A program made the position numbers and the translations under genes. The notes beneath the pieces are model-generated. The model saw only the letters and a list, made by a program, of their open reading frames with translations, had not been told where the DNA came from and ran no database searches. From IMG/VR virus record IMGVR_UViG_3300031910_000041, positions 1-24,178 of that record: a stretch of DNA of 24,178 nucleotides; one strand, written 5' to 3'. Positions 1 through 24,178 of this stretch are shown here, one piece after another (the stretch's first letter is position 1; the number at the start of each line of letters is the position of its first letter). This DNA comes from a virus. Taxonomy: Duplodnaviria; Caudoviricetes.

Positions 1-2
1 GC

Positions 3-5541: not shown

Positions 5542-5614
5542 TCGGTTTCCTCCTGCTCAAGCATGTAGCAATGCTGCACGGCTTAGCATTGCACGCCAAA
5601 AGGGGTTTCGGGGG

Positions 5615-7947: not shown

Positions 7948-8135
7948 CAGGCGACCGCGATGCTGGTGGCGGTCGTGGTGACCTGCGCGGTGCCACCCCA
8001 ACCCGGGGCGGTGGCGTGGGCGGACTGCAGCCAGTTATGCAGGGCGAGCAGGGTGCAGGGCGTAGTCAATGCGCCGGGCGGCTTCGTCACACCGGAACGG
8101 GTTTCGGGGGATTCGGGGGAATCTTTAGCAACCAT
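7947..8135 (-). CDS. Small post-capsid protein (62 aa), homolog of 14934-15110
   Basis: MVAKDSP...LTTPCTLLALHNWL...VTTTATSIAVA; stop overlaps the next ATG; a conserved paralog supports coding status. Confidence 0.75.
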   Translation of the reverse strand: MVAKDSPESPETRSGVTKPPGALTTPCTLLALHNWLQSAHATAPGWGGTAQVTTTATSIAVA

Positions 8136-8199
8136 AGTGGGAAGCGTAACGCCCAACCGGTGAGCAATGCCCAACCGGTTGAGCGTGTCGCTTGCTGTC

Positions 8200-9621
8200 C
8201 TAGAAGGTGGGTGCGGTCAGCCCGGTGATCTCCACCACGGACGCCGGATAGCGGGCCGCGGTGAACGCTAAGTACGAATAGACTTGGAGCAGGACCGTGA
8301 GATTTGCTGCTCGGGTCTCTGGTAAGACCCTGGCCCTTATCCCAGACTCCCACAGTATGAGGTCAGAGGCCCGCATGACGTAGACGATGTCCTCAGTTCC
8401 CGCGCCGGAGTTGGTAGCTATGTTAGGGTCTGTAACTATCGGCAAACCCTGTAGGCGGCCGACGATCTGCTGGGAGTCGACGGCCTCCAAAATCCCTACG
8501 GCGTTCATGGGGTTGTTGGCTTCGGGCAGCACCACCGGACGGTTCTGGGTGTCGACCTGGGCGAGCAGCCAACCCCACCGCCGCGGGTGCATGACCACCA
8601 CTTCGGGCGGCAAAAACCTGGTGGTGTGTACCGTCTGGATCGCGTTGGCGATCGCAGAATACACCTGAGTCAGCGTGACCCCGGCGGCCGCGATCGACGT
8701 AATACCCGGGGTGTTATTCACACCCAGCACCTGACCGGATGACCCGGATCCGCCGATCACCTGCCCATCCAGTACCGCGGCGTGCGCGGCCACCAGGTCC
8801 CGGAACACGACATCATCGAACGCGATCGGGGACTGGTCAATCAGCTGGATCGCGAGCCCTTGCTGACCGGAGATCGTCCGCACGGGGGCGTTGATGAACG
8901 TGTCGGTCAGGTTGGTTTCCGAGACGGTGCTGTTGTCGGTGGCCTGGATGGCGACGCTGGTACCGGTAAGCATCTTCGGCACGTTTATGCTATCAGTACC
9001 CCCCGGCAACTGTTGCCGTTGGCACACATTCGCGAACGCCCGGCCCGGGCGGGCATACGTCACATACTGATCCATGAGCCATGCCGGGGGCACCGCATAC
9101 CCACCGGAACCGTCAACCCGGCTGATGTCGCGCCATTCCTGATATTCCGGGGCGGTGGCCACATCCTGCGCGTGATCAAACAACCGGCGCCGCGACTCCC
9201 CGTCGTGATCCTGATTCGTCGTATACCGGATCAAATCCCGCACATACGACCGCTGATGCTTGTTCTCCGCGGTGTACACGTTGGATTCGCGGACCGACAC
9301 GATCGCTTTCTGGGTGTTGCGGACCTGGGCGAGGTTCGCCTGGATCTGCCCGGTGCGCCTGACTTCTTCGCCGGTGTCTTTGATCCGGGCGTCGAGGGTT
9401 TCGATGTCGGTCCCCAGGGTCCGCATGGATTCGACGTGTTTGCGTACTTCGGCGTCCTCTTCGGCGGAGAGGGTGTCGCCGTGGGTGTCTTGGGCGACCA
9501 TCAGGATCGCGGTGGCTTTGGATTCGAGGTTGTCGCGTTTTTCGGCGAGTTCGGCGCGTTGGTCGATGAGCCGGTTGAGATAGGCTTGCAGGTCGATGGC
9601 GCCGGGAGCGTCGCTATTCAT
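8200..9621 (-). CDS. Major capsid protein, HK97 fold with N-terminal delta (scaffold) domain
   Basis: 473 aa after the protease; coiled-coil N-term, GGYAVP, VMHPRRW, L.GLPIV motifs. Confidence 0.95.
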   Translation of the reverse strand: MNSDAPGAIDLQAYLNRLIDQRAELAEKRDNLESKATAILMVAQDTHGDTLSAEEDAEVRKHVESMRTLGTDIETLDARIKDTGEEVRRTGQIQANLAQVRNTQKAIVSVRESNVYTAENKHQRSYVRDLIRYTTNQDHDGESRRRLFDHAQDVATAPEYQEWRDISRVDGSGGYAVPPAWLMDQYVTYARPGRAFANVCQRQQLPGGTDSINVPKMLTGTSVAIQATDNSTVSETNLTDTFINAPVRTISGQQGLAIQLIDQSPIAFDDVVFRDLVAAHAAVLDGQVIGGSGSSGQVLGVNNTPGITSIAAAGVTLTQVYSAIANAIQTVHTTRFLPPEVVVMHPRRWGWLLAQVDTQNRPVVLPEANNPMNAVGILEAVDSQQIVGRLQGLPIVTDPNIATNSGAGTEDIVYVMRASDLILWESGIRARVLPETRAANLTVLLQVYSYLAFTAARYPASVVEITGLTAPTF

Positions 9622-9731
9622 AGGGGTCTTCTTTCGGGCGTGACGGGATGGGTTGGTGACCGTGCCGGTCGTGCCCGTGCCGGGCGCCGCCGCCTGTGCC
9701 AGGTTCGCGGGTTCAACCGTTGAGGATACGT

Positions 9732-10727
9732 CTAGGGGGCGAGTGTGGGGGGGTAGGACACGCGGGCGGCCGCCAACTCAGCCAACCGGGCGGTGATGGA
9801 ACGCAAACCTGACGGATCGGCGGCGTCCCGAACCTTCTGCAGGGCAGCCTCAATCACCCCCACAGTGATCGGGTCTTCGCCCGGCCACGCTTCGGTCCCC
9901 GCTGGTTCGATCTCCTCGTCGTCTTCGTTGGGGGGTTCGCCGCGGACGACGCCGGGCGCCGGGGCGCTGAACGGGATCGGGTCCGCGCGGGCGTGGGCTT
10001 CGGTGTCGATCGGATACTTCCCGTTGCGCGGGTCCGCGTAAGCGACGTCGCCGTACGGCTTCTTGGGGTCTTTGTCGGCGCGGCACGCCTCCAGCGCATC
10101 GGCCAGGGAAGCGTCGAGGTGCCGCAGCTCAACGAGCTGGCCGTCGGACAGGTGGGAGGCGGCCTCCAACGCGTCGGCGATCGCGACCTGGGTCGTCGGG
10201 TTGGCGCCATAGTTCACGATCGAAACGTCGCCATGCTGCAGCGTGATTTCGGTGATCATCCGCTGCGTGTAGGAGGCATCCCAGACTTGATCTTTGACTC
10301 TAAACCCGAACGACATCTGGTCCATGATGGCCCGCCCATTGGCCTGCGGCCGCAGCTTCGGGATCAGCCGCTGCACGTCCCAGTCATCGGGATCGAGCTG
10401 GGCGCGGATCTTCAGCCCTTTCATGTCGCGGGTGACCTGTAGATTCTCAGTCGTCGTCCGCGCCAACGGCCAGCCTTCATGATTGACCAACAGCATCAGG
10501 TCCGGTTTGGTGGCCAGCGTGACATCGAAAGCGCGCTGGTCGATCCGCTCTGTCCATCCTCCGCGGTCAGGACCACCCAGGATGTCGTAAGGCTCCCAGG
10601 TGGCGGCGTAGCCCTCAATGACGATCTTGCCGCTGCGGTTTTCGCGGTACTCGAACGGGGTGGGGCAAGCGCGGGTTTCGCGGACGTCGAGGATTTTCGC
10701 GCGGTTCGGATGGACAGCGATGCTCAT
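9732..10727 (-). CDS. HK97-family prohead protease with C-terminal extension
   Basis: IEGYAATW, LLVNH...PLART, MSFGF, DVSIVNYGANP. Confidence 0.93.
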   Translation of the reverse strand: MSIAVHPNRAKILDVRETRACPTPFEYRENRSGKIVIEGYAATWEPYDILGGPDRGGWTERIDQRAFDVTLATKPDLMLLVNHEGWPLARTTTENLQVTRDMKGLKIRAQLDPDDWDVQRLIPKLRPQANGRAIMDQMSFGFRVKDQVWDASYTQRMITEITLQHGDVSIVNYGANPTTQVAIADALEAASHLSDGQLVELRHLDASLADALEACRADKDPKKPYGDVAYADPRNGKYPIDTEAHARADPIPFSAPAPGVVRGEPPNEDDEEIEPAGTEAWPGEDPITVGVIEAALQKVRDAADPSGLRSITARLAELAAARVSYPPTLAP

Positions 10728-12028
10728 TTCGTGACTCCTACGGATTGCCCGTTGCGGCTTGGTGGGGTTTGGGGTCGGCCGCCGAACCCCGGCTCACTGG
10801 TGGGGGGCTTCTCGCCCGGCGCCCCGGCCGCGGACAGTGCGGCGGTCTTCGCGGGGTCGAACCCAGACGGCGCCATATTCACCGGCTGCAAGAAAGTGTC
10901 CAAACCGTCAGCCGGCTCCATCTCCTCTTTCGCCCGAACCTCGTTGCGGTTAGCCCACCCAGCCTGAATCGCCGTCTGATACGCCTTATACCGGGTGTCG
11001 ATATCACCCCGGTAGAGGGCATCGAAGTCGGTGGAGATGTACTGGCCGCGGGGCAACAAATCAGACAACGCACTCTCAATACACGAAGTCCACGACCGGA
11101 ACGAATAAGTCACCGCACCCTGAGTAATCTGTTCAATTCCAGTTCCCCATGCGGTCGCGGCCTTCGTATGACCCAGCAGCACTGGCGGGACGCCGAACAT
11201 GATGCAAATGTCTTCCCTTTGAAATTCCCTCGTTTCCAAAAACTGGGACTCATCCGGGCTGATGGACAGGTTCTGCCACTTAAACCCACCAGTCAAGACG
11301 GCGGGGAGTCGCCGGCCACCATGAGACGCGATCCAATTCTGCTGCTGCCGCTCCACACTCTCGGGATCCAAATTCTGATCCGTCATCAACAACCCCGACG
11401 GCGAAGCCGATTCCTTAAACCAGCGGTAGCCATACTCTTCAGCCGACAGCGACAATCCGATCGCCACCGCGGCCTGCCGAATCGGGGACAGCCCCCACGG
11501 CTCACCGGGCATCGTGAAACGCCGGATGTGGCAGATGTCGTTTTTGTTGACCTGCTCACCCATCACCCGGTAGATCGGATCGAACCACGCCAAAATATCC
11601 GGGCGTCTCTCCAAAAACACGATGTCGGGGTGCATCGGCATCAACGCCGTCGGCGTCCCCCCGCTGTCCCGTGACGTGATCAGGTGATAAGAATTCCCGC
11701 GTAACGCCAAATTCGCGACGACCATCCATTTCCACTGAAAAAGGTTGAACCCAGGAAATGGCTGTCTAATGATGGCGGGCTGCGGATCCAGTTTGACCGG
11801 GATCCCTTTCTTATCTTTGCGGTACGCCGCCCACGGCAACGAGGCGATCGTGTCCGCCAGCAACCGCACACACCCATACACGGTCATGTTCGCCATGCTG
11901 CGATGCACCCCGACGAAGTCGTCGATGACCCCAACTTGGGGGGGTGGGACGAACGCCGACGATTGCAGGGCACGGACCTCAAGGGCGCCGAGCTCGGCGC
12001 GGTGCAGGAGGCGGGCGAGGATACTCAT
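10724..12028 (-). CDS. Portal protein (HK97 family)
   Basis: ATG 12028 (ATGA overlap); VYGCVRLLADTIASLP, LRGNSY, GLSPI, QFLETR, FGVPP, NEVR..E. Confidence 0.95.
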   Translation of the reverse strand: MSILARLLHRAELGALEVRALQSSAFVPPPQVGVIDDFVGVHRSMANMTVYGCVRLLADTIASLPWAAYRKDKKGIPVKLDPQPAIIRQPFPGFNLFQWKWMVVANLALRGNSYHLITSRDSGGTPTALMPMHPDIVFLERRPDILAWFDPIYRVMGEQVNKNDICHIRRFTMPGEPWGLSPIRQAAVAIGLSLSAEEYGYRWFKESASPSGLLMTDQNLDPESVERQQQNWIASHGGRRLPAVLTGGFKWQNLSISPDESQFLETREFQREDICIMFGVPPVLLGHTKAATAWGTGIEQITQGAVTYSFRSWTSCIESALSDLLPRGQYISTDFDALYRGDIDTRYKAYQTAIQAGWANRNEVRAKEEMEPADGLDTFLQPVNMAPSGFDPAKTAALSAAGAPGEKPPTSEPGFGGRPQTPPSRNGQSVGVTK

Positions 12029-12345
12029 CGGCTCACTGCGATCCCATAAAGAATCAACGCGACCCCCGCGATCATCAACCCCACATACGGGGCGATCAGC
12101 CAACCCCCCACCGCCAGGGCGGTGATCCCGGTCAACTCCAACACCGTCGACGCAACAGACGTGAAGTGGGGCGGTGCCCCCGCAGCGGCCGGGGGAGTCG
12201 GAACAGGGCTGGCCGCCGTGGGGTTCGGGGGCACCGCATTCTTCGGCAGGGTAGGTTTGTTGCCGAAGAACGAATCGGGGTCATCATCGGGGAACAACCG
12301 CTGCGAACCCAGCCGGGCACCGATCGGGGTCACATTCTCATCCAT
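12025..12345 (-). CDS. Small membrane protein between terL and portal
   Basis: 106 aa, two C-terminal hydrophobic helices; stop overlaps the portal ATG. Confidence 0.7.
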   Translation of the reverse strand: MDENVTPIGARLGSQRLFPDDDPDSFFGNKPTLPKNAVPPNPTAASPVPTPPAAAGAPPHFTSVASTVLELTGITALAVGGWLIAPYVGLMIAGVALILYGIAVSR

Positions 12346-13934
12346 GCCCGCTCCAGTTCATCGTCCAGGCGTACCGGCGGCTGCTCCCACTGTGCAATGA
12401 CTTCCTCGTCCGGCCACGCGTGACACACCGGGTTCTTGACATCGGGTATATAGTTCGCCAGCCACACCGCATTCGCCACCGCCACCAGGGGCGCGACATC
12501 GACTGGGGAGGCGCGGCGGTCGAACACCCACGCATCCCCCGTCCGCCGGGCCACCCCACTAGCGGCGGCCCGATCCAACACCGGGTCCGGGCGATGCCAA
12601 ATCGTGTGCTCCACCACCCCGTCGAACAACAACCCGCACGCCGTCTGCAAATCGATCCCGGCCACCACCGGGGTGACCTCCAAACCGGCGGCCACCATCT
12701 CCGGAATCAACCCCGAGACGGGGGCCGATGTTTTCTGCACCGCGATCCCCGCGAACTTCCCCTTCCGCGCCCCCAGCCAATCGATCACCCAATCCGTGCC
12801 CCCCGCCGACGCGATCAACTCGACATGCGTCCCACCCCCGGCCCGGGCCGCGGCGACCGCCACATAAGTCATCGACCGCTGATAATTCACGTCGACCGCC
12901 ACAAACGCGGCCGCCCCCCGAGCCCGATGCGACTCCGGGTCAAGGGTCTCGGCCCAATGCTCCGCCGGCATAATCCCCGGCTCCAACGCATCCACCCACA
13001 TACACAAATGCTCAGTCATAAAACCCGGCATGTTGCGGAACTGCTGCGCCTCCAAAAACCCCCGCAAATCCGCCAACCGAAACAACCCCGAACCCATCGC
13101 CGGATTCGCTAGCCGCCACACCGTCTCATCACGCGGATCACTGTCAGGTGGCGCCGACCACTCAAACAACCCAACCCGCGTGTCCTTCGTGGTGCCCGCC
13201 ACGATCCGCGCGTTCGCACCATCCCGCAGCGTACGGAGTACCTCACTTTTCGCGTCCCCCGCATTTGAACAACACACCACCTGCGGATGCGGCCGCGCCG
13301 TCGTCGTCGGCACAATCGCGTTCCACGCATCAGAATTCTGATGTTCACGCAACTCATCAAGCAGAACCAGATCCACGGCCATCCCCCGGCCACCCCGCCG
13401 ATTCGCCGCCACCACCCGCCACTGCCGACCGTTCGTCAACTCGATCCGATTCGACCCGTTATCCAACCGATGCTTGGTGTACTCCCCCCGCAAACCCCGA
13501 CACCCACCAAGATCCTCCGCGACCTCTTTCAACATCGCTTCGGCATACTTCAAGTTCTGACACGCCATCAACACCGTCTTCGCACCTGGACACCCCCCCG
13601 TCGACTGCCCCAACGGATCCATGAACAACCGCCACAACCCCAACCCCTTCAACCACTGCGACTTCCCGTTCTGCCGGGACACCAGCACACAGATCCTGGA
13701 GAACCGAAACCCCTGCCGGTCCGGGCCCTTCTCCAACGCGTGGACATACAGCCACTGCTGCCACTCCAGCAACCGCCAACCCAAACATTTCTCGAGGAAC
13801 TCGATGCAATCCCACCCCCAGGACCACTCCCGCGACAACCACCCCCCATACCCGATATGCGATTCGATCGGCGGGGTCGCCAACCTGGGGGTGACCGACC
13901 CGAGTTCGGTCGTCGTCAACAGGGTCGCCGTCAT
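12330..13934 (-). CDS. terL: Terminase large subunit
   Basis: 534 aa; Walker A SRQNGKS, Walker B VLLDELRE, SNAG, W..ANP, nuclease VAVD. Confidence 0.95.
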   Translation of the reverse strand: MTATLLTTTELGSVTPRLATPPIESHIGYGGWLSREWSWGWDCIEFLEKCLGWRLLEWQQWLYVHALEKGPDRQGFRFSRICVLVSRQNGKSQWLKGLGLWRLFMDPLGQSTGGCPGAKTVLMACQNLKYAEAMLKEVAEDLGGCRGLRGEYTKHRLDNGSNRIELTNGRQWRVVAANRRGGRGMAVDLVLLDELREHQNSDAWNAIVPTTTARPHPQVVCCSNAGDAKSEVLRTLRDGANARIVAGTTKDTRVGLFEWSAPPDSDPRDETVWRLANPAMGSGLFRLADLRGFLEAQQFRNMPGFMTEHLCMWVDALEPGIMPAEHWAETLDPESHRARGAAAFVAVDVNYQRSMTYVAVAAARAGGGTHVELIASAGGTDWVIDWLGARKGKFAGIAVQKTSAPVSGLIPEMVAAGLEVTPVVAGIDLQTACGLLFDGVVEHTIWHRPDPVLDRAAASGVARRTGDAWVFDRRASPVDVAPLVAVANAVWLANYIPDVKNPVCHAWPDEEVIAQWEQPPVRLDDELERAWMRM

Positions 13935-14197
13935 GCCTGCTGTTTCCGCTGGTAGCGGCGCCGAAATGAAGCCAACTCATCATCCGGCGCCAACTCACTA
14001 TCCGAAATCGGCGGCGTCGGCCCGACATCCACAGCCAACCCCAAATGCCGGCCCTGCTGCGCCAAAATCCGGCGCGCCACCTCAACCACCTTCGGATCCC
14101 CCGCCATCGCCCCCGGCCACACCGCAGCCAGCAACGACTCCAACCTCGCGGCATACACTTCAGTCTTCGACGGCGGCGCAGATTTCCGACGAGTCAT
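13931..14197 (-). CDS. Putative terminase small subunit (88 aa, no evident HTH)
   Basis: Stop overlaps the terL ATG; RLESLLAAVWPGAMAGD...RILAQQGRHLGL and C-term DELASFRRR; start chosen at ATG 14197. Confidence 0.7.
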   Translation of the reverse strand: MTRRKSAPPSKTEVYAARLESLLAAVWPGAMAGDPKVVEVARRILAQQGRHLGLAVDVGPTPPISDSELAPDDELASFRRRYQRKQQA

Positions 14198-14335
14198 GTG
14201 ATCGATTATGTCCCCTAAATGCCCCGAAACGCCCCCAACATGCCCCGAAAAGGACCCCGAAAGTGCCCCATAATGCCCCAATGACCAACGAAATCCGAAC
14301 ACGACCGTGACCAGCACCGACACCGCCATCCTGGT

Positions 14336-14399
14336 CGCTATTTGACACCACCGCGTTATTTAACACGGCAACGCTATTTGACACCCCGCGCTATTAGAC
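14336..14399. repeat. Four CG(C/T)TATT(T/A)(G/A)AC repeats, 17-18 bp period
   Basis: Copies at 14336, 14354, 14372, 14389; copies 1 and 3 share CGCTATTTGACACC exactly. Confidence 0.8.
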
Positions 14400-14612
14400 T
14401 ATCCGACAGATTGCACACCCGCCAGAACGGTGTTTGCTGGACGGGTTAACCAGCGGGTTCAGCCCTTTGCTAGTTTTCCGAAAATCGGCATTTCCGCAGG
14501 TCAGCGTTAGTTTAGCTAGGTAGCTTTACTTTGGGCGATGAGGCTCCGACCTGCGGTTATGCGTTCCCAAGGTGTGTTTTTTTGGTTGCTCAGAGAGAGA
14601 TTTGGCGAGTGG

Positions 14613-14665
14613 CCATCGGGGGCGTGGGGGTAGCTAGGGACTTTGCAACCCCCATCCCCCTGTTT
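14613..14665. repeat. 53-bp direct repeat copy 1, putative cos region
   Basis: ccatcgggggcgtgggggtagctagggactttgcaacccccatccccctgttt is identical to 24126-24178 and lies upstream of terS. Confidence 0.9.
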
Positions 14666-14933
14666 GCTGGCGTGGATGCCATGTTTGCTGGCCATTGCCC
14701 CATGTTTGCTGGGTTTGCTGGGGGTGGTGACCGTCGCCCGGCCATGGTCAGCGAGCCATGGTCACCAAAAACCATGGTCACCGGAGGGTAGGTACCCGCG
14801 CCGGAGGGTGGCGCGGACGGTGTCGCCGGGATGGTCCAGGCCCCCGAACAGCCCGCAAACGGCCCTGAAACGTCGACAAACAACCCTGAAACGTCCACAA
14901 AGTGGACAACCAGCCCGCGATGGTCGCGATCGT

Positions 14934-15110
14934 TTAGCCGACGGTGATTTCGCTGTTGGTGGTGGTGATGGTGGCGGCCACATCGGCGGCGGGGCCCAGC
15001 ACGTCGATGTCGGCGAGCCAGTGCCGCAGGGCGAGCAGGGTGCAGGGGGTGGTCAGCACCGGGGCGTTGGGTGCGATCGGCGGCTGTTTGCGTGGCTGCC
15101 TGCCGGTCAT
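14934..15110 (-). CDS. Small post-capsid protein (58 aa), homolog of 7947-8135
   Basis: ATG 15110 overlaps the capsid TGA; LTTPCTLLALRHWL...ITTTNSEITVG. Confidence 0.75.
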   Translation of the reverse strand: MTGRQPRKQPPIAPNAPVLTTPCTLLALRHWLADIDVLGPAADVAATITTTNSEITVG

Positions 15111-16462
15111 CAGAACGTGGGCGGCAAAAGCCCAGTCAGCTGGACAACTGATTGCGGGAAGCGGGCCGCGCTGAACGCCAAATACCCATACACCTGACAC
15201 AAAACAGTCAGTGTGGCTGCTTTCGGCTCCGGAAGCACACGCGCGCGCAAGCCCGATTCGTACAGGACAAGGTCGGAGGATCTCATCACGTAAATTTCGT
15301 CTTCGGTGCCGGCGCCGGCGGTGGTTTTGATGTTCGCGTCGACAACGATCGGCAGCCCGTGGGTTCTTCCGACGATCTGCTGGGGGTCGACGTCTTCGAT
15401 CACGCCGGCGGCATTGAACGGGCCATTAGCGTCTGGCACAAAAAGTGGCCTGTTCTGAAGATCCAGAAGCGACATCAGCCACGAAAACCGTCGTGGATGC
15501 ATAACAATGACCTCGGGCGGCAAGTATCGTGTCGTATTGATCAGCTGTATTGCGTTGGCAATGGCTGAATAGACGCCTTTGATGTCCAAGGACGATACCG
15601 TGACGGTTTGGATGCCTGGTGTGTTGGCGATGCCCAGGACTTGGCCGCTTGATCCGGTGCCGTACAAAATCTGCTGGTCGAGGCGCATGGCGTGGTCGGC
15701 GGTGAGGTCTTTGAAAATAACGTCATCCATCGCCACCGGCGACTGGTCGATCAGCTGAATGCTGATTCCTTGCTGGCCTGCGAGTGTTCGTACCGGCAGA
15801 TTTACGAATGTGTCGGTCAGGTCGACGTCGGTGACCGCGGTATTGTCCGCGGTTTGAATTCCGGTTTGGGTTCCGGTCAGGATTTTCGGCAGGTTGAGGT
15901 TGTCGCAGCCTCCGGGTAGGGGCAGGCGTTGCGCCAGGTTGGCGGTGGGTCGTCCGGGGCGGGCGAATTCGATGTACTGATTTACTAACCATGCCGGTGG
16001 TGAGAAGTATCCGCCGGTGCCGTCGACCCGGGAAATGTCGCGGTATTCGGTGCCGAAATCGGTGGCGATTTCTTCGGCGTGGGCGGCCAGCCGGCGGCGG
16101 GACTCTGACGTGTCGTCCATGTTGAGCTGGACGCGCATGAGGTCGCGGAAGTAGCTGGTTTGGCTGTGGGGGCGGTAGACGTTGCTGGTGGGGTTCATGG
16201 GGGTGCTTCTCCGGTCTTGGGTTGCGTGGCTGAGGTGGCGTAGGTGGGCGGGGATTTGGCCGCGCCGCAGTTCCTCGGTCTCGTCGGTGATTCTTTGCGA
16301 CAACGTGCGCAGCGTTTCGATGTGCTGATGTACTTCGGCGTCTTCTTGAGGGGTGAGGGTGTCGCGGCCGTCGGCTTTGGCGCGGGCCAGGATCGTTTCG
16401 GCTCGCTGTTGGCAGGTCTGGCGGCGGGTTTCGAGCTGGTCGATAAGGGCTTGGGATGGCAT
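15110..16462 (-). CDS. Second major capsid protein (satellite-encoded paralog), about 450 aa
   Basis: Gap-free alignment by eye to 8200-9621 from RDISRVDG to PTF; start chosen at ATG 16462 (MPSQALIDQL matches helper LQAYLNRL). Confidence 0.93.
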   Translation of the reverse strand: MPSQALIDQLETRRQTCQQRAETILARAKADGRDTLTPQEDAEVHQHIETLRTLSQRITDETEELRRGQIPAHLRHLSHATQDRRSTPMNPTSNVYRPHSQTSYFRDLMRVQLNMDDTSESRRRLAAHAEEIATDFGTEYRDISRVDGTGGYFSPPAWLVNQYIEFARPGRPTANLAQRLPLPGGCDNLNLPKILTGTQTGIQTADNTAVTDVDLTDTFVNLPVRTLAGQQGISIQLIDQSPVAMDDVIFKDLTADHAMRLDQQILYGTGSSGQVLGIANTPGIQTVTVSSLDIKGVYSAIANAIQLINTTRYLPPEVIVMHPRRFSWLMSLLDLQNRPLFVPDANGPFNAAGVIEDVDPQQIVGRTHGLPIVVDANIKTTAGAGTEDEIYVMRSSDLVLYESGLRARVLPEPKAATLTVLCQVYGYLAFSAARFPQSVVQLTGLLPPTF

Positions 16463-16902
16463 GGCACGCAGCGGCTTTCGGGGTAAGGCGAAACCGGCGG
16501 ACAGGCGCCGGTTTCGCACGCGTCAGGGACTTGGGTCCCTGACGACCCCTGACGACACCCCTTACGGGTGCCGGATCGGGAGCGTGCCGCCCTCACGGGT
16601 GCCGATCATCTCCGAGGGACCGGGAACTGGCTGTCCCTCCCGCGCAGCGCCGTGCACGACGATGCGGGGTCTACCGAGGATTATGCCCCGCCCCAGGGAG
16701 ATTGGCACAGACGAGCCGCGACAAACGGCCTGTCGCGGCGAACCTTGATCGCCCCTGGGGCCGGGATAGGGTCCATTTAACTACACGGTTGTCATTCAGA
16801 TATAGGCCTGGGCCAATTGGCCCACCCTTGCCGATTCCTGGAGCCGTATGGGGCCGTGGAGTGATCAGCGGCCCTCGGGTGGGGTGGGTTGTACGCGGGG
16901 GG

Positions 16903-17121
16903 TCAGTCTTCGGCGGCCAGGGCGGCGCTCAGCGCGTCGGCGAGGGCCCGGGCCGACTGTTTGGCTTCCTCGCTGGCGTGCGGGTCGCTGCTGACTAGTT
17001 CGGCGTCGTCGATCGCATCGAGTGTGCGGCCCGCAAGCCCTCGGGGATGCGGGCGCATCGGCCGGTCGCCGACCTCGGCGATGGCGGCGGCCTCGGCTGC
17101 GAGCTGTTCTTCGGGGTTCAT
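16903..17121 (-). CDS. Hypothetical helical protein (72 aa)
   Basis: ATG 17121 overlaps the upstream stop (ATGA); last gene of the coupled chain. Confidence 0.6.
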   Translation of the reverse strand: MNPEEQLAAEAAAIAEVGDRPMRPHPRGLAGRTLDAIDDAELVSSDPHASEEAKQSARALADALSAALAAED

Positions 17122-17495
17122 GGGGTTCCTGTGATCGGCCAGTTGATTTTCGGGGGCCGCAGCTTGGGCTGGGCGACGTTGATGATGGTGTGCGGGGTGC
17201 CGTCGGCCGGCGCCAGTGCGGCGGCGTCGGCGTGGCTGCGGTGGTAGCTCCAGGTGGCGTGCAAGTTCTGCGACGCCCACACCACGAGGGCGATCGTCGG
17301 GGGGTGTTTGTCGTCAACGCGGGGCACGGTGGCGCGATGTTGGCGCTGCCACTGGCGGGAGCGACGACGGGCGCAGACAAGGCACTCCTGGGATCCGGCG
17401 GCGTTGAGCCGGACGTTGGCCGGCGACAGGGGGTGGCCGAGATGACACGTCTGTTGCCGGGGGCGGCCCACACGGGTGATCATCGCACCGATCAC
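17118..17495 (-). CDS. Zn-binding protein (TCxxGH...N...G..xCxxC motif)
   Basis: GTG 17495 overlaps the upstream stop (alternative ATG 17483); QTCHLGHPLSPANVRLNAAGSQECLVCARRR. Confidence 0.65.
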   Translation of the reverse strand: MIGAMITRVGRPRQQTCHLGHPLSPANVRLNAAGSQECLVCARRRSRQWQRQHRATVPRVDDKHPPTIALVVWASQNLHATWSYHRSHADAAALAPADGTPHTIINVAQPKLRPPKINWPITGTP

Positions 17496-17722
17496 GCGAG
17501 CCTTGATGCCGGGTGCTCGCGTTCGGTCCAGGCGATGGCGGCATCGCAGACGCAGCACGACACCCACTCGTTGGCCGCCAGGACCGCGACCGGGACCAGC
17601 TTGGCGGGCGGCGGCGCCACCGAACGCAACAACCACAAACTGCCGTCGTTGCGGGTGGTGATCTCGTCCGCGGAAATCTGCGCGGTGCGGCCGTCGAACA
17701 AGGTGACTGTCCAGATGGTCAT
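17492..17722 (-). CDS. Hypothetical small beta-rich protein (76 aa)
   Basis: ATG 17722 with GAGG RBS and ATGA overlap; MTIWTVTLFDGRTAQISADE. Confidence 0.65.
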   Translation of the reverse strand: MTIWTVTLFDGRTAQISADEITTRNDGSLWLLRSVAPPPAKLVPVAVLAANEWVSCCVCDAAIAWTEREHPASRLA

Positions 17723-17991
17723 GCGGTCCTCTTTTCGGGGGTGTCGAGCACGAACCACGCGGCCGCTCGGGTGGCCAGCAGCAGATCGTGGTCGTAAAGG
17801 TCGTGCCAGGACTTGGGGCAGTGCGGGAAGTAGACCGCGTGCAAGTCACGGCGCTCCGTGCAGCGCCCGCACAGCAGCCGGGCGCCGTCGGTCAGCACAA
17901 AGTGCAAGCGGCGCCGGCCGATCCGTTTACCGCATTCGTCGCAGCGCAGCGCGGGCGCCGGGCCAGCGCCCCAAGGCCATCGGTCGGTCAT
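17719..17991 (-). CDS. Putative zinc-finger protein (90 aa)
   Basis: AAAGGA RBS; CDEC...CGRC and H/C-rich tail. Confidence 0.65.
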   Translation of the reverse strand: MTDRWPWGAGPAPALRCDECGKRIGRRRLHFVLTDGARLLCGRCTERRDLHAVYFPHCPKSWHDLYDHDLLLATRAAAWFVLDTPEKRTA

Positions 17992-18009
17992 ACGGAAAAT
18001 TCCTTTCAG

Positions 18010-19380
18010 TCAGAACGCGGGGTTTGCTGGGCAGTCGTCGCGGTGGCCTTGCTTCTCGATGTGCCAGCCGCATTCGGGGCAGCGGCCGGGGCCGGTCGGG
18101 GGGGCGAATCCGGTCGCTGCGCCGGGTTGGATAGGGGTCTCAAACAACCCGGAGAACCCGGATAACTCGGATAACCCGGATACATCACCAGGCGATCCGG
18201 CGCAATCTGCGCCGGGTGCGCCGGGTGCGCCGGGTTCTCCGGGTTGAATACGGCCTATTTTGAGTCGGCGCCAGACCGGCTCCAAGGTGGAGCGGACATA
18301 GCCGCGGGGGCCGCGGGTGTCGGGCCGGCACGATGTCACCTTCGCCGCCTGGTCGATCAGCAGACCCAATCTGGTCTCGGTGAGTTGTTTGCCGTAGGGG
18401 CTGTCGGCGCCCCAATAATCCGGGTGATGTCCGACGAGTTTGGCCACGAGCTGGCGGGTCGGCATGAACGGTTCACCCTCGGGCCAGATGATCCACAGGT
18501 CGCGCATCACGACCATGCCCGGCGGCAGTTTCTTCAGCCCGGCCTCACGCTCGGCCTTCTCCTGCGCCATATCCGCCTCGATCAACCGCAAGACGGTCTG
18601 CGGCCAGTGACCCCCGGCGGCGGCGGAGACCCGCGCCAATGGCCGCCACTTCTCCTTGCTCCGACCTATGCAGCCCGCGGGCAGATCGGCATCTATGCCG
18701 CGGATGTCGTCGCGGACTGCATCAGCGAAGGCGGCGATGCGGGCTCTCAGCGCGGCGGCCTCGTCTTCGATGTACTCCCAATCCGAATCCTCGATGCTGC
18801 CGTCAAGGTCGGGCATCAGCAGGATCCGGATCTGCCGCGAGGCGGTATCAGCGGGCAGGTTCGGATTGTTACCTGCCATCGCCAGCGGCGCGAACGTCGT
18901 CATTTCGTCGGCGTCCCAGCCGCCGCCCTTGGTGGGGATCAAAACGGGGCGTGTGGCGCCGTGGCGGTATCCGGTGTTGATGATGCCGAGCAGTTCCTCC
19001 ACACCCGGCTTGTCGGGGCGTAACGCCCGGTGCGCCTCGTCGATCAGGATGGTCCGCATCCGGTTCTCCAGCAGACGCGGTATCAGCGCCGGGGATGAGA
19101 TGGTGGCGGCCTGCACCGGGTCCACGCAGAGCCGGTTGAGGTGGTCGATCACGGTGGACTTGCCGCTGCCCTCCATGATCGAGTCGATCAGCAGCCGCGG
19201 AGTGGTGTACAGCTCGCGGACCAGGTGGGTGTGTACCGCCCACAACGCCAGCAAGTACAGGTCGTCGGTGTCGGTGACGGCGATGAACCGGACCCACCAT
19301 GTCACGAGGTCGTCGAGCAGCTCGGCTCCGTCGATGTCGCCGAACGTCTCCAGGTATTCGTCGGAGCGGTCCTCGGTCAT
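18010..19380 (-). CDS. DUF3631-like P-loop replication protein (resembles phiRv2 Rv2655c)
   Basis: ATG 19380 (ATGA overlap); GAELLDD, TPRL...GSGKS, ILIDEA, INTGY, C-term RGY; recognised from memory of the family. Confidence 0.85.
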   Translation of the reverse strand: MTEDRSDEYLETFGDIDGAELLDDLVTWWVRFIAVTDTDDLYLLALWAVHTHLVRELYTTPRLLIDSIMEGSGKSTVIDHLNRLCVDPVQAATISSPALIPRLLENRMRTILIDEAHRALRPDKPGVEELLGIINTGYRHGATRPVLIPTKGGGWDADEMTTFAPLAMAGNNPNLPADTASRQIRILLMPDLDGSIEDSDWEYIEDEAAALRARIAAFADAVRDDIRGIDADLPAGCIGRSKEKWRPLARVSAAAGGHWPQTVLRLIEADMAQEKAEREAGLKKLPPGMVVMRDLWIIWPEGEPFMPTRQLVAKLVGHHPDYWGADSPYGKQLTETRLGLLIDQAAKVTSCRPDTRGPRGYVRSTLEPVWRRLKIGRIQPGEPGAPGAPGADCAGSPGDVSGLSELSGFSGLFETPIQPGAATGFAPPTGPGRCPECGWHIEKQGHRDDCPANPAF

Positions 19381-19685
19381 GCGACCTCCCGCGGGATGTA
19401 GGCGCTGCGGCGCCAGAAGATTTCGGTGGCGACCGACGCCCACTCGGTCGAGGCAGATATGTCACGTGACGCCTCGGCGAGCGCGGTCTGGCCGGTTTCG
19501 ATCCGAAGCGCCCAGTGCTGGGCGGCGTCGAACAGGGCGGCGACCTTACGCGGGTCGGCGTCGTCGAGCGCGCACCACTCTGGGGTGCCGACCATCGGCA
19601 ACGGGCCAGCGGCATCGAGATAGGGCTGCAAATAGGGCTGCACCCACTCATGCACCGACCACCAGGAGACCGCGGCGCTACCCAT
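19377..19685 (-). CDS. DUF2742-like protein (resembles phiRv Rv2656c/Rv1583c)
   Basis: VSWWSVHE...GTPEWCALDDADP...AAQHWALRIET...AEASRDIS...YIPR; start ATG 19685 or TTG 19703. Confidence 0.85.
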   Translation of the reverse strand: MGSAAVSWWSVHEWVQPYLQPYLDAAGPLPMVGTPEWCALDDADPRKVAALFDAAQHWALRIETGQTALAEASRDISASTEWASVATEIFWRRSAYIPREVA

Positions 19686-19754
19686 CGCCGACCGCCAGAT
19701 CAAACTCTTCGCGTAAATCCCACCAACGAACCTGCTGCGAACCCCCGGCAGTCA

Positions 19755-20630
19755 TCAGACGCACCCGTCGCCGTCACCGATGCGTGCGATCCGCGCCAAC
19801 ACCTCGCGTTCGCTCTTTTCAGCCTCCTTGGTGATCCGCAACGCCTCCGGGTCGACGTTTCTCTCGATCGCAATTCGCAACAGATCGCGCAGCGTCGAGG
19901 ACGGCATGGCGTCGACCTCGACACAGTCCCCGAACCCGCTGTTGGTCTTGTCGGGCCGGGTGGGCAGATTCAGCCAGTCAATCTGCAGGGGTGTGACCGC
20001 GATCCGGAAGAATGTCAGCTCGATGTCGTCGTCGACAAACTCCTCCAACTTGCGGCAGATGGCGCGCCAGGCCTGCACGCCGTCGCGGTCGTGGTCGCCG
20101 ATGTTGTAGATCACGGCCGGGTTGCCCTCGGTGTTGATCTCCTCGGCCGTCTCCCACAGGAACGTCTCGGAGCTGTAGCCGCGCGAGATCAGCAGCGGCA
20201 CGTCGTACTCGGCGGTGACCGGATAGACCACGCCGCGGATGGCGTCTTTCTCACACCACACCTCGACGTGGATGCCCTGGTCGATCCACAGGTCACGCCG
20301 GTACATGCGGGCCGTGTTCTCCAGCGCCGCCTGGGCGCTGGAGAACGTTCGCGGCTTGAGCCGCAGCCGGGACCCATCGGTAATCCACTCGTAGGGGAGA
20401 TCACCACGGCGACGCATCTTCAGGGCTTGGCGCTGCACCACGGCGTAGCCGTGCTCGGTCTTGGGCACCAGCCCGCGTGACATGACGCGGTAGAACAGGC
20501 CGCGGACGGTGACCGGCTCCTCGGCCTCGGCGACCTCGTAGATGGCGGCGTCGATCTCGGCCAGCTCCGCCTTGGTCCTCCGACGCCGCTGACCGTTTAG
20601 TGCACTAGTCCCATAAACCGCGGTGCTCAC
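19755..20630 (-). CDS. Top6A/Spo11-like winged-helix + TOPRIM protein (Mini-A-like), 291 aa
   Basis: GTG 20630 overlaps the upstream stop; TVRGLFY, VEVWCEKDA, RGYSS, GDHDRDG, EVDAM. Confidence 0.75.
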   Translation of the reverse strand: MSTAVYGTSALNGQRRRRTKAELAEIDAAIYEVAEAEEPVTVRGLFYRVMSRGLVPKTEHGYAVVQRQALKMRRRGDLPYEWITDGSRLRLKPRTFSSAQAALENTARMYRRDLWIDQGIHVEVWCEKDAIRGVVYPVTAEYDVPLLISRGYSSETFLWETAEEINTEGNPAVIYNIGDHDRDGVQAWRAICRKLEEFVDDDIELTFFRIAVTPLQIDWLNLPTRPDKTNSGFGDCVEVDAMPSSTLRDLLRIAIERNVDPEALRITKEAEKSEREVLARIARIGDGDGCV

Positions 20631-20998
20631 TCGCCGGCCGCCAGTTCGTACAGGTTCTCGGCCAGGGCGCGGTCGCCGCCGCCGCGGCGCCACAACGCGC
20701 ACAGCACCTTCTGGGGAAGCAGCGGCGTGCAGCCGATGTCGAGGAGATGACTAGCGGCGGCGGCGCCGGCGTTAACCCAGCGATCCGACGGTGGCGCTTC
20801 GCCGCAATCGCAGGGCCAAGAGTTCGGGCATCCGCAGCGCAGCGGCCCGAGCCACAGCGAGGGGGCGTCGCGGTACCCGAGGTGTCGGGGCGCCGCGATA
20901 CCCTGTGGGTGCTGGTCTCTGCTGAGTGGTGACTGGCGACGGTGATGGTGGCGGGCGCTCTCAGGGGTGGGGGCGCCGCCCCTTCTGTCAGGCGGCAT
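20627..20998 (-). CDS. Cys-rich hypothetical protein
   Basis: PLRCGCPNSWPCDC...ALWRRGGGDRALAE; stop coupled to the next gene; start uncertain. Confidence 0.65.
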   Translation of the reverse strand: MPPDRRGGAPTPESARHHHRRQSPLSRDQHPQGIAAPRHLGYRDAPSLWLGPLRCGCPNSWPCDCGEAPPSDRWVNAGAAAASHLLDIGCTPLLPQKVLCALWRRGGGDRALAENLYELAAGE

Positions 20999-21047
20999 CG
21001 CTGGTCACCCGCTTACGCGCAAGCCTTTTCGGCCTTAGGCACCCGTG

Positions 21048-21242
21048 TCATGCGCCGGGCTTCACGGTGCGCGCGTCCAAATACGCCCGGACGTCGGCCC
21101 AGCGGTACCGCACCGCGCGACCGACCCGGATATACGGCAAGCCGATCCCCCGATACCGCTGCTGCGCCAGCGTGGAGGTGGTGACGTTCAGAGACTCGGC
21201 CACTTGCTCAGGCGTGGCGAGCTGGTCGTCCAGTTTGGGCAA
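21048..21242 (-). CDS. Excisionase/AlpA-like HTH protein (64 aa)
   Basis: TTG 21242 after GAAGGA; LATPEQVAESL...GLPYIRVGRAVRYRWADVRAYL. Confidence 0.88.
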   Translation of the reverse strand: MPKLDDQLATPEQVAESLNVTTSTLAQQRYRGIGLPYIRVGRAVRYRWADVRAYLDARTVKPGA

Positions 21243-21357
21243 TGTGATTCCTTCCCTGTGGCACGTATGAGTACGTGCAACTAGTTCGACGAAAACACAG
21301 CCGAGAGATCCGGTCAAGGGCTAGACGAGTGCCGTAGATCTACGTTATCTTCTGTGA
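21243..21357. promoter_or_regulatory. Divergent xis/repressor control region
   Basis: Inverted repeats GCACGTA-N4-TACGTGC (21261-21278), AACTAGTT (21279-21286), CGTAGATCTACG (21333-21344); TAGACG-18-TATCTT ending 6 nt before ATG 21358. Confidence 0.65.
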
Positions 21358-22077
21358 ATGGATTCCACTTCGTTCCAGGCCACCGTCGGAGCCAACTGCC
21401 GCCGGATACGTGACACCCACGGCGTCACGCAAGCCCAACTCGCTTCCCACGCGCGCCGCGTCGGGCTGCGCTGGACCGCCTCCAAGGTCGGCGATTTCGA
21501 GAGCGGCCGCAACGCGGTCTATGCCCATGTGCTGTTCGCGGCGGTGGCGGCGCTGGACAACGCGGTGGCCGAGGCCCCCGGCCCGTTTCGGGTATGGCAC
21601 GCCGGCGGGACCATGACCCAGCGCAAACGGCCCCGGGTGTATCTGCACGATCTTGTCGGATCGGATGGCTACGTGACGTTAAACGACGATTTCGCGCCGA
21701 CGGGCGACACGCTGGCGGCGTTCTGCTCGGGCAAACCGTGGGAGCTGCACGGCGGCGACGACGGTGCCACCGCCGGGCGAACCGACGAGCTGCTGGGTCC
21801 GGCCCCCGGCGTGTTCGGCGAGCGCTACCGGATGCGCCTGGGCGACGTCGAAGACATGCGCCGCCGCGCCACCATCACCGACACCCGGCTGGCCCGGCGT
21901 CTCGGCATCGAGCCCGACACCCTGCTGGGCCTGTCCTGGCGGCTGTGGCACCGCCCGTTCAGCGAGGAACGCGACCGCCGCGCCGGCACCTCAGTCGGCA
22001 GACGCGGACACATAGCGCGTGCACTGACCACCGAACTACAAGCCGAACTCTGGAAGGACCACCGTGGCAACGATTGA
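21358..22077 (+). CDS. XRE-family HTH repressor (Stl-like position)
   Basis: N-term CRRIRDTHGVTQAQLA...WTASKVGDFESGR; divergent from xis and upstream of int. Confidence 0.8.
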   Translation: MDSTSFQATVGANCRRIRDTHGVTQAQLASHARRVGLRWTASKVGDFESGRNAVYAHVLFAAVAALDNAVAEAPGPFRVWHAGGTMTQRKRPRVYLHDLVGSDGYVTLNDDFAPTGDTLAAFCSGKPWELHGGDDGATAGRTDELLGPAPGVFGERYRMRLGDVEDMRRRATITDTRLARRLGIEPDTLLGLSWRLWHRPFSEERDRRAGTSVGRRGHIARALTTELQAELWKDHRGND

Positions 22078-23164
22078 GAAATACCAAACCGCGGGCGGCG
22101 CAACGCTTTACATGGTGCGCTACCGCAAACCCGACAACAAACAGACCATGAAACGCGGCTTCGCCACCAAACGGGACGCGCAGATGTTCGCCGCGTCAGT
22201 GGAGGTCGCCAAGGCGCGCGGTGAGTACGTGGCGCCGTCGCTGGGCCGGGTCAGCGTGGCCGAGCTGGGCGGGGCGTGGCTGGCCCGTCAGCGCGGACAC
22301 ATGAAACCCTCCGGGTGGCGCAGCTACGAGTCCGCGTGGCGGGTCCACGTGGAGCCGCGCTGGGGCACCACCGCGCTGGCCGACGTCCGCTACTCGGACG
22401 TGGCCGCCTGGGTCGCGCAGCTGTCCGCGCGGCGCGGGCCGGTGATCGTGGAAACCGCGGCCTCGGTGCTGCGCCGCATCCTCGACGACGCGGTGGCCGA
22501 CCGGCTGCTGGCGTCCAACCCGGCCCGCGGCGTCAAACTGCCCAAGCGGGCACGGCGCCAGAACGTGTACCTGACCGCGCAGCAACTGCACGCCCTGGCA
22601 GATGAGGCCGGCCGCTACCGCCCGCTGGTGCTGCTGCTGGGTGTCGGCGGGCTGCGCTGGGGCGAAGCGGCGGCGCTGCGAGTCGGTGACGTGGATTTCC
22701 TGCGCCGCCGGGTGCATCTGCACCGCAACGCGGTGGTGATCGGGCGCGAGGTCCACGTCGGCTCGTTGAAGTCGGGGAAGAACCGCAGCGTGGCGCTGCC
22801 CGGTTTCGTCACCGACGCGCTCGCGCAGACGTGTGACGGCAAGGGCCGCGACGAGGTGCTGTGGCCGTCGGCGACCGGCGGGTATCTGGCCCCGCCGTCG
22901 TCGAGGAATTCGTGGCTGTCCGGGGCGGTCGCCCGCTGCCAGGCCGCCGACCCGACGTTTCCCCGGATCACCGCCCACGCGCTGCGGCACACCGCCGCAT
23001 CGTTGGCGATCAGCGCGGGGGCCAACGTCAAGGTGGTTCAGCGGATGCTCGGGCACGCCAGCGCCGCGATGACGCTCGATGTCTACGCCGACCTGTTCGA
23101 CTCCGACCTGGATGCGGTCGCCGACCGGCTCGACACCCTGCACCGGCAGGCGAGGAAGCGATGA
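22064..23164 (+). CDS. int: Tyrosine integrase
   Basis: 366 aa; arm-binding N-term; GLRWGE, K, HALRH, LGH, DVY catalytic motifs. Confidence 0.96.
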   Translation: MATIEKYQTAGGATLYMVRYRKPDNKQTMKRGFATKRDAQMFAASVEVAKARGEYVAPSLGRVSVAELGGAWLARQRGHMKPSGWRSYESAWRVHVEPRWGTTALADVRYSDVAAWVAQLSARRGPVIVETAASVLRRILDDAVADRLLASNPARGVKLPKRARRQNVYLTAQQLHALADEAGRYRPLVLLLGVGGLRWGEAAALRVGDVDFLRRRVHLHRNAVVIGREVHVGSLKSGKNRSVALPGFVTDALAQTCDGKGRDEVLWPSATGGYLAPPSSRNSWLSGAVARCQAADPTFPRITAHALRHTAASLAISAGANVKVVQRMLGHASAAMTLDVYADLFDSDLDAVADRLDTLHRQARKR

Positions 23165-23325
23165 CCGCGACCCCGCTGCTGGACTGCCCCACCCCGTACA
23201 AGCACGCCTACCGCAGCCGGGGGCAGGCGCTGGCCGGGTTCGTCGTCGGCCCTTTCACCCGGGCGCACCGCCCCTACCTGTGCCGGTGCGGATACTGGCA
23301 CATCACCAGCAACCCGCTGATCTGA
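23161..23325 (+). CDS. Small Zn-finger-like phage protein (54 aa)
   Basis: ATG overlaps the int stop; C..P.K.AY...RPYLCRCGYWHITS. Confidence 0.65.
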   Translation: MTATPLLDCPTPYKHAYRSRGQALAGFVVGPFTRAHRPYLCRCGYWHITSNPLI

Positions 23326-23328
23326 AAC

Positions 23329-23554
23329 GTGCTCAAAATGTGCTCACGGCGTGCTCAATCGCACGGATATTCGGATCAGAAACCGCGTCTACCAGCGTAA
23401 ACGTCGGCCCCACGGTTGAGCCTCCTGTCAGGATTGAACTGTTCTGAGCGGTCCTGGTCAGGGGGTCAAACCCGGCTTGAACTGCAAAAAGACAATAACG
23501 TAGTTCGACAGAGACCTACAGAAATGTGCTCAGATTGTGCTCACGATGTGCTCA
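23329..23554. other. attP-like site: tRNA-derived core with arm-type repeats on both sides
   Basis: Core 23417-23441 (minus: CAGTTCAATCCTGACAGGAGGCTCA); GTGCTCA x3 at 23329/23340/23351 and x3 at 23526/23537/23548. Confidence 0.85.
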
Positions 23555-23705
23555 CGCCCAGGGGCGCTGAATCGCTAATCACAGCATTCCGGCGGATTGT
23601 CGGAAATTTCGGCGGAAAGTACGAAATTCCGGCGGAAAGTCAAAAAGCCCAGCGGATTACAGCCGATACGCTTCCCACATGCGAAATTGGGCCTCCGACG
23701 TCCAG

Positions 23706-23861
23706 ATGACCCCGTACGAACGCGACCGCGCCATCCTCGAGCTACGGCAAAAGGGCCACACCTACCGCGCCATCGGCCGGGCCGTCGGCATGGCCCCGTC
23801 CGCCGTCCACGCCGCCTACCGACGCCTGGTGGCCGGCGGACCGGGCACCAGAGCCCGCTAG
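23706..23861 (+). CDS. Stand-alone HTH protein (51 aa)
   Basis: MTPYERDRAILELRQKGHTYRAIGRAVGMAPSAVHAAYRRL. Confidence 0.75.
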   Translation: MTPYERDRAILELRQKGHTYRAIGRAVGMAPSAVHAAYRRLVAGGPGTRAR

Positions 23862-24125
23862 CTAACTTTGTGACAAAACCCCAGCTCAGAGACATTTGCT
23901 GGCGGGGTTTGCTGGTTAGCTGGCCGCGTTAGCCTCTTCGCTGGCAGGTAGCTGACCCTGTTTGCTGGAATCGCAGATTTCGGGTTTTTGCAGGTCACGG
24001 TGATCTTGATAAGCGGACTAAACTCCCGGCTGACATGCAGAAAGGCGTATTTTAGCTGCTCAGAGGGGGTGTTTTTGGTCGCTAAGCGGACTTTTGTCCG
24101 TTCCAGGGAGATATTCGGCGAGCGC

Positions 24126-24178
24126 CCATCGGGGGCGTGGGGGTAGCTAGGGACTTTGCAACCCCCATCCCCCTGTTT
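24126..24178. repeat. 53-bp direct repeat copy 2, putative cos region (runs to window end)
   Basis: Exact match to 14613-14665. Confidence 0.9.

Follow-up and report, generated by a model that had tools for sequence, protein, structure and literature searches.

The question raised by this locus is why the structural genes of a tailed phage and a small integrative element stand on one viral contig, and whether the two are joined in nature. The window that we analysed is the whole of IMG/VR record IMGVR_UViG_3300031910_000041 (24,178 bases), with a phage part to the left and a 9,513-bp element to the right, which an earlier note had taken for a capsid-encoding satellite caught in a cointegrate with its helper. 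We conclude, with a probability of about 0.72, that the element is a separate 9,513-bp circle, likely a cos satellite of the phage-inducible chromosomal island (PICI) type belonging to the neighbouring siphovirus, and that the join at 14612 is likely a switch made by the assembler; the satellite is thus probably real and the contig that carries it probably chimeric. Candidate PICIs of Mycobacterium that hold an integrase and a capsid gene are already published (PMC10654092; this and all other papers are cited for those passages that bear on the features discussed). New here are a scaffold helix shorter by exactly seven residues in the major capsid proteins (MCPs) of element type, and another pair of phage and element whose cos variants match.

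The shared block and the join at 14612

Left of the join lies the structural operon of a siphovirus on the minus strand (TerS-like, terL, portal, protease, MCP, connectors and tail), whose nearest cultured relatives by terL are the mycobacteriophages Typha and Bipper at ~51%. An exact 53-nt repeat occupies 14613-14665 and 24126-24178, the second copy being the contig end, and the spacing of 9,513 reproduces the unit that the earlier note had described between these repeats. The other exact 20-mer repeats, among the matches listed, were only a 22-nt stretch of paralogy between the MCP partner genes and a GCC run. The exact identity between phage and element truly spans 62 nt (14611-14672), of which the repeat is a part. 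In the window a lone G is found at 14612, where 6/6 other contigs checked have C, and because of this G the identity within the window stops after CCCCCGATGG; hence the minus-strand limit noticed earlier is correct for the window, and the true shared block is longer.

We located the repeat in Joint Genome Institute (JGI) metagenomes by an exact 25-nt scan, which returned seven stretches, two of them the window record itself. In L030 and L032 the sequence runs from the phage terS region across the repeat and on into the right arm of that phage, and in L034 the element integrase is followed by attP, the repeat and the end of the element MCP gene, with 100% identity over 22347-24178. L034 then continues into 14666-15711, so that the circle is observed directly in an independent assembly, which answers the earlier question of whether 24178 leads into 14666. 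L031 starts and L033 stops at the edges of the repeat. All three other repeat-spanning contigs (3/3) are self-joins, phage to phage or element to element, and a junction from element left to phage right was not seen in the five other JGI stretches holding the repeat; thus the second junction that a cointegrate requires was not seen. Passages through the repeat in Logan contigs (X5 record 29) were not counted as read evidence, because such contigs cannot resolve a 62-nt repeat. Moreover, of the 62-nt block precisely the initial 55 nt stand at the end of the window contig. This is the signature of a de Bruijn graph with k=55, in which a path that runs into a collapsed repeat follows the loop and breaks off at the first 55-mer in common. 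The self-joins and this signature make an assembly join of a circular satellite and its helper, one of the alternatives put forward earlier, the most likely explanation, with the assembler likely switching inside the shared block. Satellites that share the cos of their helper can therefore yield chimeric viral contigs that resemble cointegrates, and this should serve as a warning. A second candidate for a phage-element join, L003, was rejected as a phage with a distant DUF3631 gene.

The shared 62-nt block is likely a cos site, as judged from its position and motifs. An HNH gene (PF01844) ends ~340 nt beyond the repeat in L032, which gives the phage order HNH-block-terS-terL and agrees with the earlier placing of the repeat upstream of terS. 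The same motif recurs in relatives: the phages L004, L013 and L132 have it upstream of terS, with HNH on its other side in L013 and L132, and the elements L060, L114 and L082 have it downstream of MCP. The cluster N phage Parmesanjohn has a mapped 13-base 3' overhang, CCCGCCGCAATGG (PMC6544188). Ahead of this end stand CAGCAAAC repeats, a GACCTGCGGAAA box and a G-tract, and the same three features are found around the block of the window phage. The likeness of CCCCCGATGG to mycobacteriophage overhangs, suggested earlier, is weak evidence by itself (two matches of the 10-mer; 3/100 shuffles reach 2). When the phage cos region was compared by BLASTN with 50,697 phage records, only chance matches came up (best E 0.2), so the cut site rests on motifs common with one cluster N end; the genome of Typha ends without the cos motif. 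The cut probably falls at CGATGG, because conservation among relatives ends there.

Within a set of four phages, the window phage and the element are mutual best cos matches (85% over 102 nt), and phage L132 and element L060 form a second mutual-best pair (83%, 102 nt). The matching variants are at L060 2078 and L132 3413; L060 has a serine-integrase-like open reading frame (ORF), and its MCP DNA is at 72% to that of the window phage and 66% to that of the window element. Like cos-type Staphylococcus aureus pathogenicity islands (SaPIs), the element thus carries the cos of its helper, with 62-nt identity at the HNH-terS position and a predicted cut. The locus gives a candidate helper-satellite pair tied by an identical predicted cos, and it predicts a packaging route, which is of value because the helpers and packaging of the catalogued mycobacterial islands are stated to be undemonstrated (PMC10654092).

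A capsid protein with a shorter scaffold

The MCPs of element and phage are 56% identical, with 46% in the delta (scaffold) domain (141 vs 164 residues) and 64% in the shell domain, which is 309 residues in both. They have in common an R-DISRVDG motif at the cleavage site predicted from HK97-type processing, and a fold search with the element MCP, for which an alternative in-frame GTG start at 16519 is possible, returns HK97 capsids. The AlphaFold model of this protein is of low confidence overall (mean pLDDT 62), and we used only the two delta helices of its confident part, a hairpin of helices 4-30 and 38-67. The span across helix 2 was 29 residues in every one of the 30 phage MCPs, whereas ten of the 14 MCPs from elements had 22 and the remaining four 17, 18, 20 and, in the degenerate L050, 36; the phage and element labels behind this comparison come from gene content and were set after the first tree had been seen, L055, L093 and L096 being classed as phage-type, and eight unclear loci (five with span 22, three with 29) were set aside. 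Among the matches listed (114 measurable of 120 homologues), the span was 22 in 73, 29 in 36 and other in five. As in cos-type SaPIs, the capsid homologue of the element thus has a reduced delta domain (141 residues against 164 in the phage, with a heptad deletion).

The delta-domain tree separates elements from phages (13 vs 20 rows, 99/99, with a long-branch warning), and the shell-domain tree mixes them, with at least four changes forced; in the approximately unbiased (AU) test, monophyly of the satellite shell domains gave p 0.023 with the careful tree and 0.08 with the quick tree. The split in one tree and the mixing in the other therefore suggest that the satellite scaffold was conserved while shell domains were repeatedly acquired from phages. 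How the delta domain sets the size of HK97 heads is discussed as unresolved (PMC8569155); a clean experimental handle on it is this natural indel of seven residues, which tells satellite proteins from phage ones while the shell stays 64% identical.

SaPIbov5, whose helper is phi12, carries its helper's cos and an HK97-fold capsid homologue, Ccm, whose delta domain is shorter and which directs the helper's assembly towards small heads (PMC5052747, PMC8569155). The element likewise carries the helper cos, would borrow packaging and tail and encodes a short-delta capsid homologue, and by this analogy it likely works as SaPIbov5 does. Unlike SaPIbov5, it has an actinobacterial host and a TerS-like helix-turn-helix (HTH) protein beside cos, and its shell domain appears to have been re-acquired from phages several times; moreover its MCP is 56% identical to the helper's against 24% for Ccm (PMC8569155), and its delta domain is shortened by 23 residues, including one exact heptad, against 44 in Ccm (PMC5052747). 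A sub-question is whether the element MCP builds a complete shell alone, borrowing only portal, protease, terminase, connectors and tail, and we put this at somewhat less than an even chance. The full-length and closely similar shell domain speaks for it, as do the far greater distance between Ccm and the phi12 capsid protein and the retained homologue of the phage's post-MCP partner gene; however, the high identity also favours co-assembly with the phage protein, and Ccm, in spite of a full HK97 fold, forms pentamers only and no shells by itself (PMC8569155).

Satellite status, proposed life cycle and alternatives

The element encodes the MCP, a 59-residue partner, DUF3631 and DUF2742 proteins, a topoisomerase-annotated protein, divergent HTH regulators, a tyrosine integrase and a small HTH protein, and none of its 21 ORFs scanned matched terminase, portal, protease, tail or lysis genes. 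This fits the earlier view of a satellite whose morphogenesis genes are the MCP and one small partner only, and which relies on a helper for terminase, portal, protease and tail. The DUF2742 and DUF3631 genes are probably common to the element and phiRv2. The 59-residue partner had no Pfam and no Atlas match. Related MCP-only elements include L118, a complete 10.3-kb circle with a serine integrase, and L049, a 16.7-kb island at tRNA-Val; neither matches terL, portal or protease of the window phage. CheckV estimates imply genomes of ~85-100 kb for fragments of related phages, ~10x the element. As a separate observation, defence-like cargo lies beside the short-scaffold elements L049 and L059 (methylase and HerA; type I restriction genes).

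The TerS of the phage and its close relatives has 80-90 residues and is without the HTH that longer relatives, Typha gp8 among them, have at the N-terminus. The 60-residue HTH protein of the element resembles that HTH (profile E 1e-6 over 39 columns; pairwise E 2e-4), a likeness that is easily generic, and it resembles the TerS N-terminus only, the oligomerisation part not being found in the element. Similar HTHs occur near MCP and HNH in L039, L080, L114 and L118; no stand-alone copy was present in 5/5 related phage fragments, and a weak search among 85 candidates found no longer homologues. A role like that of Rpp is speculation. Across the family, the HTH is absent from TerS in the window phage, L011, L010, L036, L112, L132 and L133 and kept in L003, L071, L086, L107, L108 and Typha gp8, and the PHROG label 'RNase E' for this family appears to be a misannotation of TerS.

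The att site is internal with both arm sets intact, as the earlier note said, and its core lies at 23418-23441. Three TGAGCAC repeats stand on each side at 11-bp spacing (23329-23357 and 23526-23554); the window contains this motif eight times, where shuffles average 2.2 and 0/100 reach 8. The 24-nt core, allowing at most two mismatches, was found at five places in three of five Mycobacteriaceae genomes and had no control match; two of these places are 3' ends of tRNA-Thr(TGT), one of them exact (24/24 in G002, where the DNA beside the tRNA gave no match to element genes). Relatives of the integrase at E <=1e-100 occur in 42 of 401 Mycobacteriaceae genomes, and a tRNA lies within ~200 nt of the integrase 3' end in 18 of the 20 closest genomic loci. 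L114 has an identical att core and an integrase 87% identical to that of the element. The A1 profile matched 4/401 of these genomes at E 1e-60.

The exact 62-base copy of the phage's likely cos, together with an own shell protein with a shortened scaffold, indicates that the element is likely a phage parasite packaged in small heads, and a life cycle can be proposed. The integrase would insert the element into a Mycobacterium host at tRNA-Thr(TGT), and phage infection would trigger its excision and replication. Phage terminase and HNH protein would cut the element's copy of cos. The element MCP, with its matching predicted cleavage motif and a shell domain of equal length, would assemble on the phage portal, alone or mixed with phage MCP, and be matured by the phage protease. 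With the shorter scaffold the head would come out smaller, with room for 9.5 kb and not for the much larger phage genome, and phage connectors and tail would complete the particle. A wider proposal is that a large family of capsid-only mycobacterial satellites uses a fixed scaffold, shorter than that of the helpers by exactly one coiled-coil heptad, as a head-size switch, repeatedly swaps shell domain and cos core with the helper of the moment, and has a stand-alone TerS-derived HTH in place of the domain lost by the TerS of the helper clade; taken as a whole this is rather doubtful.

Several observations weigh against a separate cos satellite. Join types were read from assembled contigs rather than from raw reads. 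The element/phage depth ratio was 0.78-0.95 in 4/4 runs (low-mismatch contigs only, in runs chosen because both phage and element are present), which matches what a fixed 1:1 cointegrate would give, and in runs X2, X3 and X17 attP was unbroken, at the depth of the element. The depths left and right of 14613 are thus near-equal, though in preselected runs. The G-tract is 7 nt nearer ATGG in the window than in Parmesanjohn, and because of this difference in spacing the predicted cut position is not fixed; the cos sites of L114 (best 72%) and L082 (best phage 50%) are without a close partner among the four phages. Moreover, tRNA-Thr accounts for 0/18 of the integrase-adjacent tRNAs, and the search for the unit at tRNA genes led to the related island at tRNA-Val and, in the genomes searched, to no integrated copy of this exact element. 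Profile scans of the element proteins gave no primase family match, and the small heads are inferred only.

The depth ratio and the attP that is intact at full depth speak for a real cointegrate, in which the element would lie inside the phage genome between two cos copies and be carried 1:1 until terminase cuts it out. Such a structure would form by recombination in the 62-nt block, whose perfect identity would permit exchange, or by annealing of cos ends; the window contig itself shows the join, and a depth-2 contig of run X1 likewise has G at 14612. However, the three other spanning contigs are self-joins, the element-left to phage-right junction was never seen, and the window contig halts 55 nt into the second copy and does not enter the phage right arm. 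On this evidence we do not retain the cointegrate of the earlier note, which is unlikely by either route of formation. Still less probable is an element in decay, or an island that is not packaged, for which MCP and cos no longer count: the element MCP has a long terminal branch (0.39-0.44) and some genomic relatives look degenerate (L043, L047, L050), but the ORFs are intact, cos is 100% identical to that of the co-occurring phage over its 62 nt, attP is unintegrated, at least 86% of the words of 12000-21000 are present in 24/24 runs among the matches listed, and the short-scaffold type spans at least 73 clusters at 90% identity. A single phage with a right arm made of a PICI-derived lysogeny module, also raised earlier, is hardly credible, since in L030, L031 and L032 the identical phage continues into a right arm of its own that carries HNH and other genes, the element closes on itself and the two MCP genes come from different lineages; in its favour, no tyrosine integrase was found in 5/5 fragmentary records of related phages.

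Known satellites and further features

As a likely PICI-type cos satellite, the element resembles the candidate Mycobacterium PICIs of Abad et al. (2023, PMC10654092), which consist of integrase and MCP and for which induction and transduction are undemonstrated; both are integrase-plus-MCP islands at a tRNA gene in Mycobacterium. The passages of that paper compared here name no helper-cos match or scaffold feature, and its Data Set S4 may hold members of this family. By the PICI core of SatelliteFinder (PMC10085698), the element has an integrase and a capsid morphogenesis gene and no tail or lysis genes, with divergent HTH_31 and HTH_17 genes beside the integrase (by Pfam rather than SatelliteFinder profiles); in place of a small terminase it has only the 60-residue HTH resembling the TerS N-terminus, and for a primase-replicase only DUF3631 and DUF2742. 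Since neither TerS nor a recognisable primase is present, this core list makes the element a partial PICI at best.

Like phiRv1 and phiRv2 (PMC12268328, PMC3986857), the element is of the 9-11 kb class with integrase, excisionase and capsid gene, and phiRv2 also has a tyrosine integrase at a tRNA. The earlier description as phiRv2-like is thus only loosely right; unlike the element, in which none of these was detected, phiRv1 encodes terminase, prohead protease and primase (PMC12268328). Packaging at cos by the helper would be shared with the Gram-negative cos PICIs EcCICFT073 and PmCI172 (PMC6092414, PMC6739421), the latter also with an MCP homologue and with small heads (PMC6739421); the small DNA-binding protein could play a part similar to EcCICFT073 Rpp, and relative to these islands the cos core of the element is identical to the helper's with differing flanking repeats. 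The EPIPs of Mycolicibacterium aichiense (PMC12822802) are, like it, ~10-kb mycobacterial soil satellites with a capsid gene; unlike it, they have a serine integrase, TerS, head-tail adaptor/stopper, scaffold and tape measure and no helper homology, and the element has none of their serine integrase, TerS, adaptor/stopper or tape measure. Capsid-forming PICIs (cf-PICIs) have their own terL, portal, protease, connectors and HNH, which the closed 9,513-bp circle does not. In helper-embedded PICIs (PMC10111431) integration at an att site places the island in a late gene of the helper; here attP is intact and the join lies at cos. Terminase and portal, which the element lacks, are encoded by the Streptomyces satellites MulchRoom, MiniFlayer and Ando (PMC10690885, PMC13587820). 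In the open-access literature (subscription papers lay outside this scope), we found no paper on a mycobacterial helper-satellite cos match or on a heptad indel in satellite delta domains.

Table 1. Features of the window, in order along the phage part and then the element
Feature	Position	Strand	Basis or remark
Phage connector and tail genes; tape measure with transglycosylase domain	1..7495	-	
Phage head module: terL 12330-13934, portal 10724-12103, protease 9732-10727, MCP 8200-9621 (delta 164 aa), small partner	7947..13934	-	
Phage TerS-like protein, 88 aa, without N-terminal HTH of longer relatives	13931..14197	-	position before terL
62-nt phage/element block, predicted cos core (G-tract, GCAAAG box, ending CCCCCGATGG), probable mis-join site	14611..14672	-	sequence comparison, cluster N end
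Element-specific cos flank, CAGCAAA and GGTCACC/GGTGACC repeats	14673..14830	-	
59-aa MCP partner, LTTPCTL motif, homologue of phage gene after MCP	14934..15113	-	49% over 39 aa, E 4e-10
HK97-fold MCP, 450 aa: delta domain 141 aa with one-heptad deletion in helix 2, shell domain 309 aa	15110..16462	-	PF05065
Four small ORFs (73, 122, 76, 90 aa)	16903..17991	-	three recur upstream of MCP in L061; one with weak HNH-associated zinc motif
DUF3631 protein, putative replication/helicase gene	18010..19380	-	PF12307, E 1e-13; function inferred
DUF2742 protein	19377..19703	-	PF10888, E 7e-36
PHROG family protein annotated 'DNA topoisomerase'	19755..20630	-	phrog_6247, E 7e-41
HTH_17 excisionase/AlpA-like regulator	21048..21317	-	
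Divergent HTH_31 repressor-like protein	21358..22077	+	82% to L114
Tyrosine integrase	22064..23164	+	PF00589, E 5e-20
attP, core 23418-23441 identical to 3' end of Mycobacterium tRNA-Thr(TGT), 3+3 arm repeats	23329..23554		
Three 20-bp-period direct repeats, candidate iterons or operator	23586..23656	+	~84% conserved in L060/L061
60-aa HTH adjoining cos, similar to N-terminal HTH of full-length TerS in the phage's wider clade	23679..23861	+	
Element's other cos flank, ACCTGC box and three CAGCAAA repeats	23890..24123	-	
First 55 nt of 62-nt block, contig end; element closes into 14666 here	24124..24178	-	L034

Promoter and terminator scans of the window were at or near chance level. The topoisomerase-annotated ORF at 19755-20630 was without Pfam, PDB or PADLOC support, and it is cargo, with no match in any related element locus examined. 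The 20-bp-period repeats are kept in elements with different integrases (L060 2346-2437) and are a candidate origin or operator, and a 35-nt inverted repeat of 9-bp units at 18145-18246, inside the 3' end of the DUF3631 gene, is also origin-like. The small LTTPCTL domain (7947-8135 and 14934-15113 in the window) is also found fused to an N-terminal EIQ/EVQ beta-rich repeat (L016 255-728; L004 near 450-910); these fused ORFs sit between cos and terS and are possibly a capsid decoration anchor. In the related phages L013, L016, L017, L070, L108 and L117, matches to terL and sometimes portal are split by ~1-kb inserts, which are candidate inteins or introns. Variant att and cos regions lie on low-depth contigs (L034 1072-1119 and 1768-1896; runs X1, X2, X3 and X17), and thus several related elements share the same soils.

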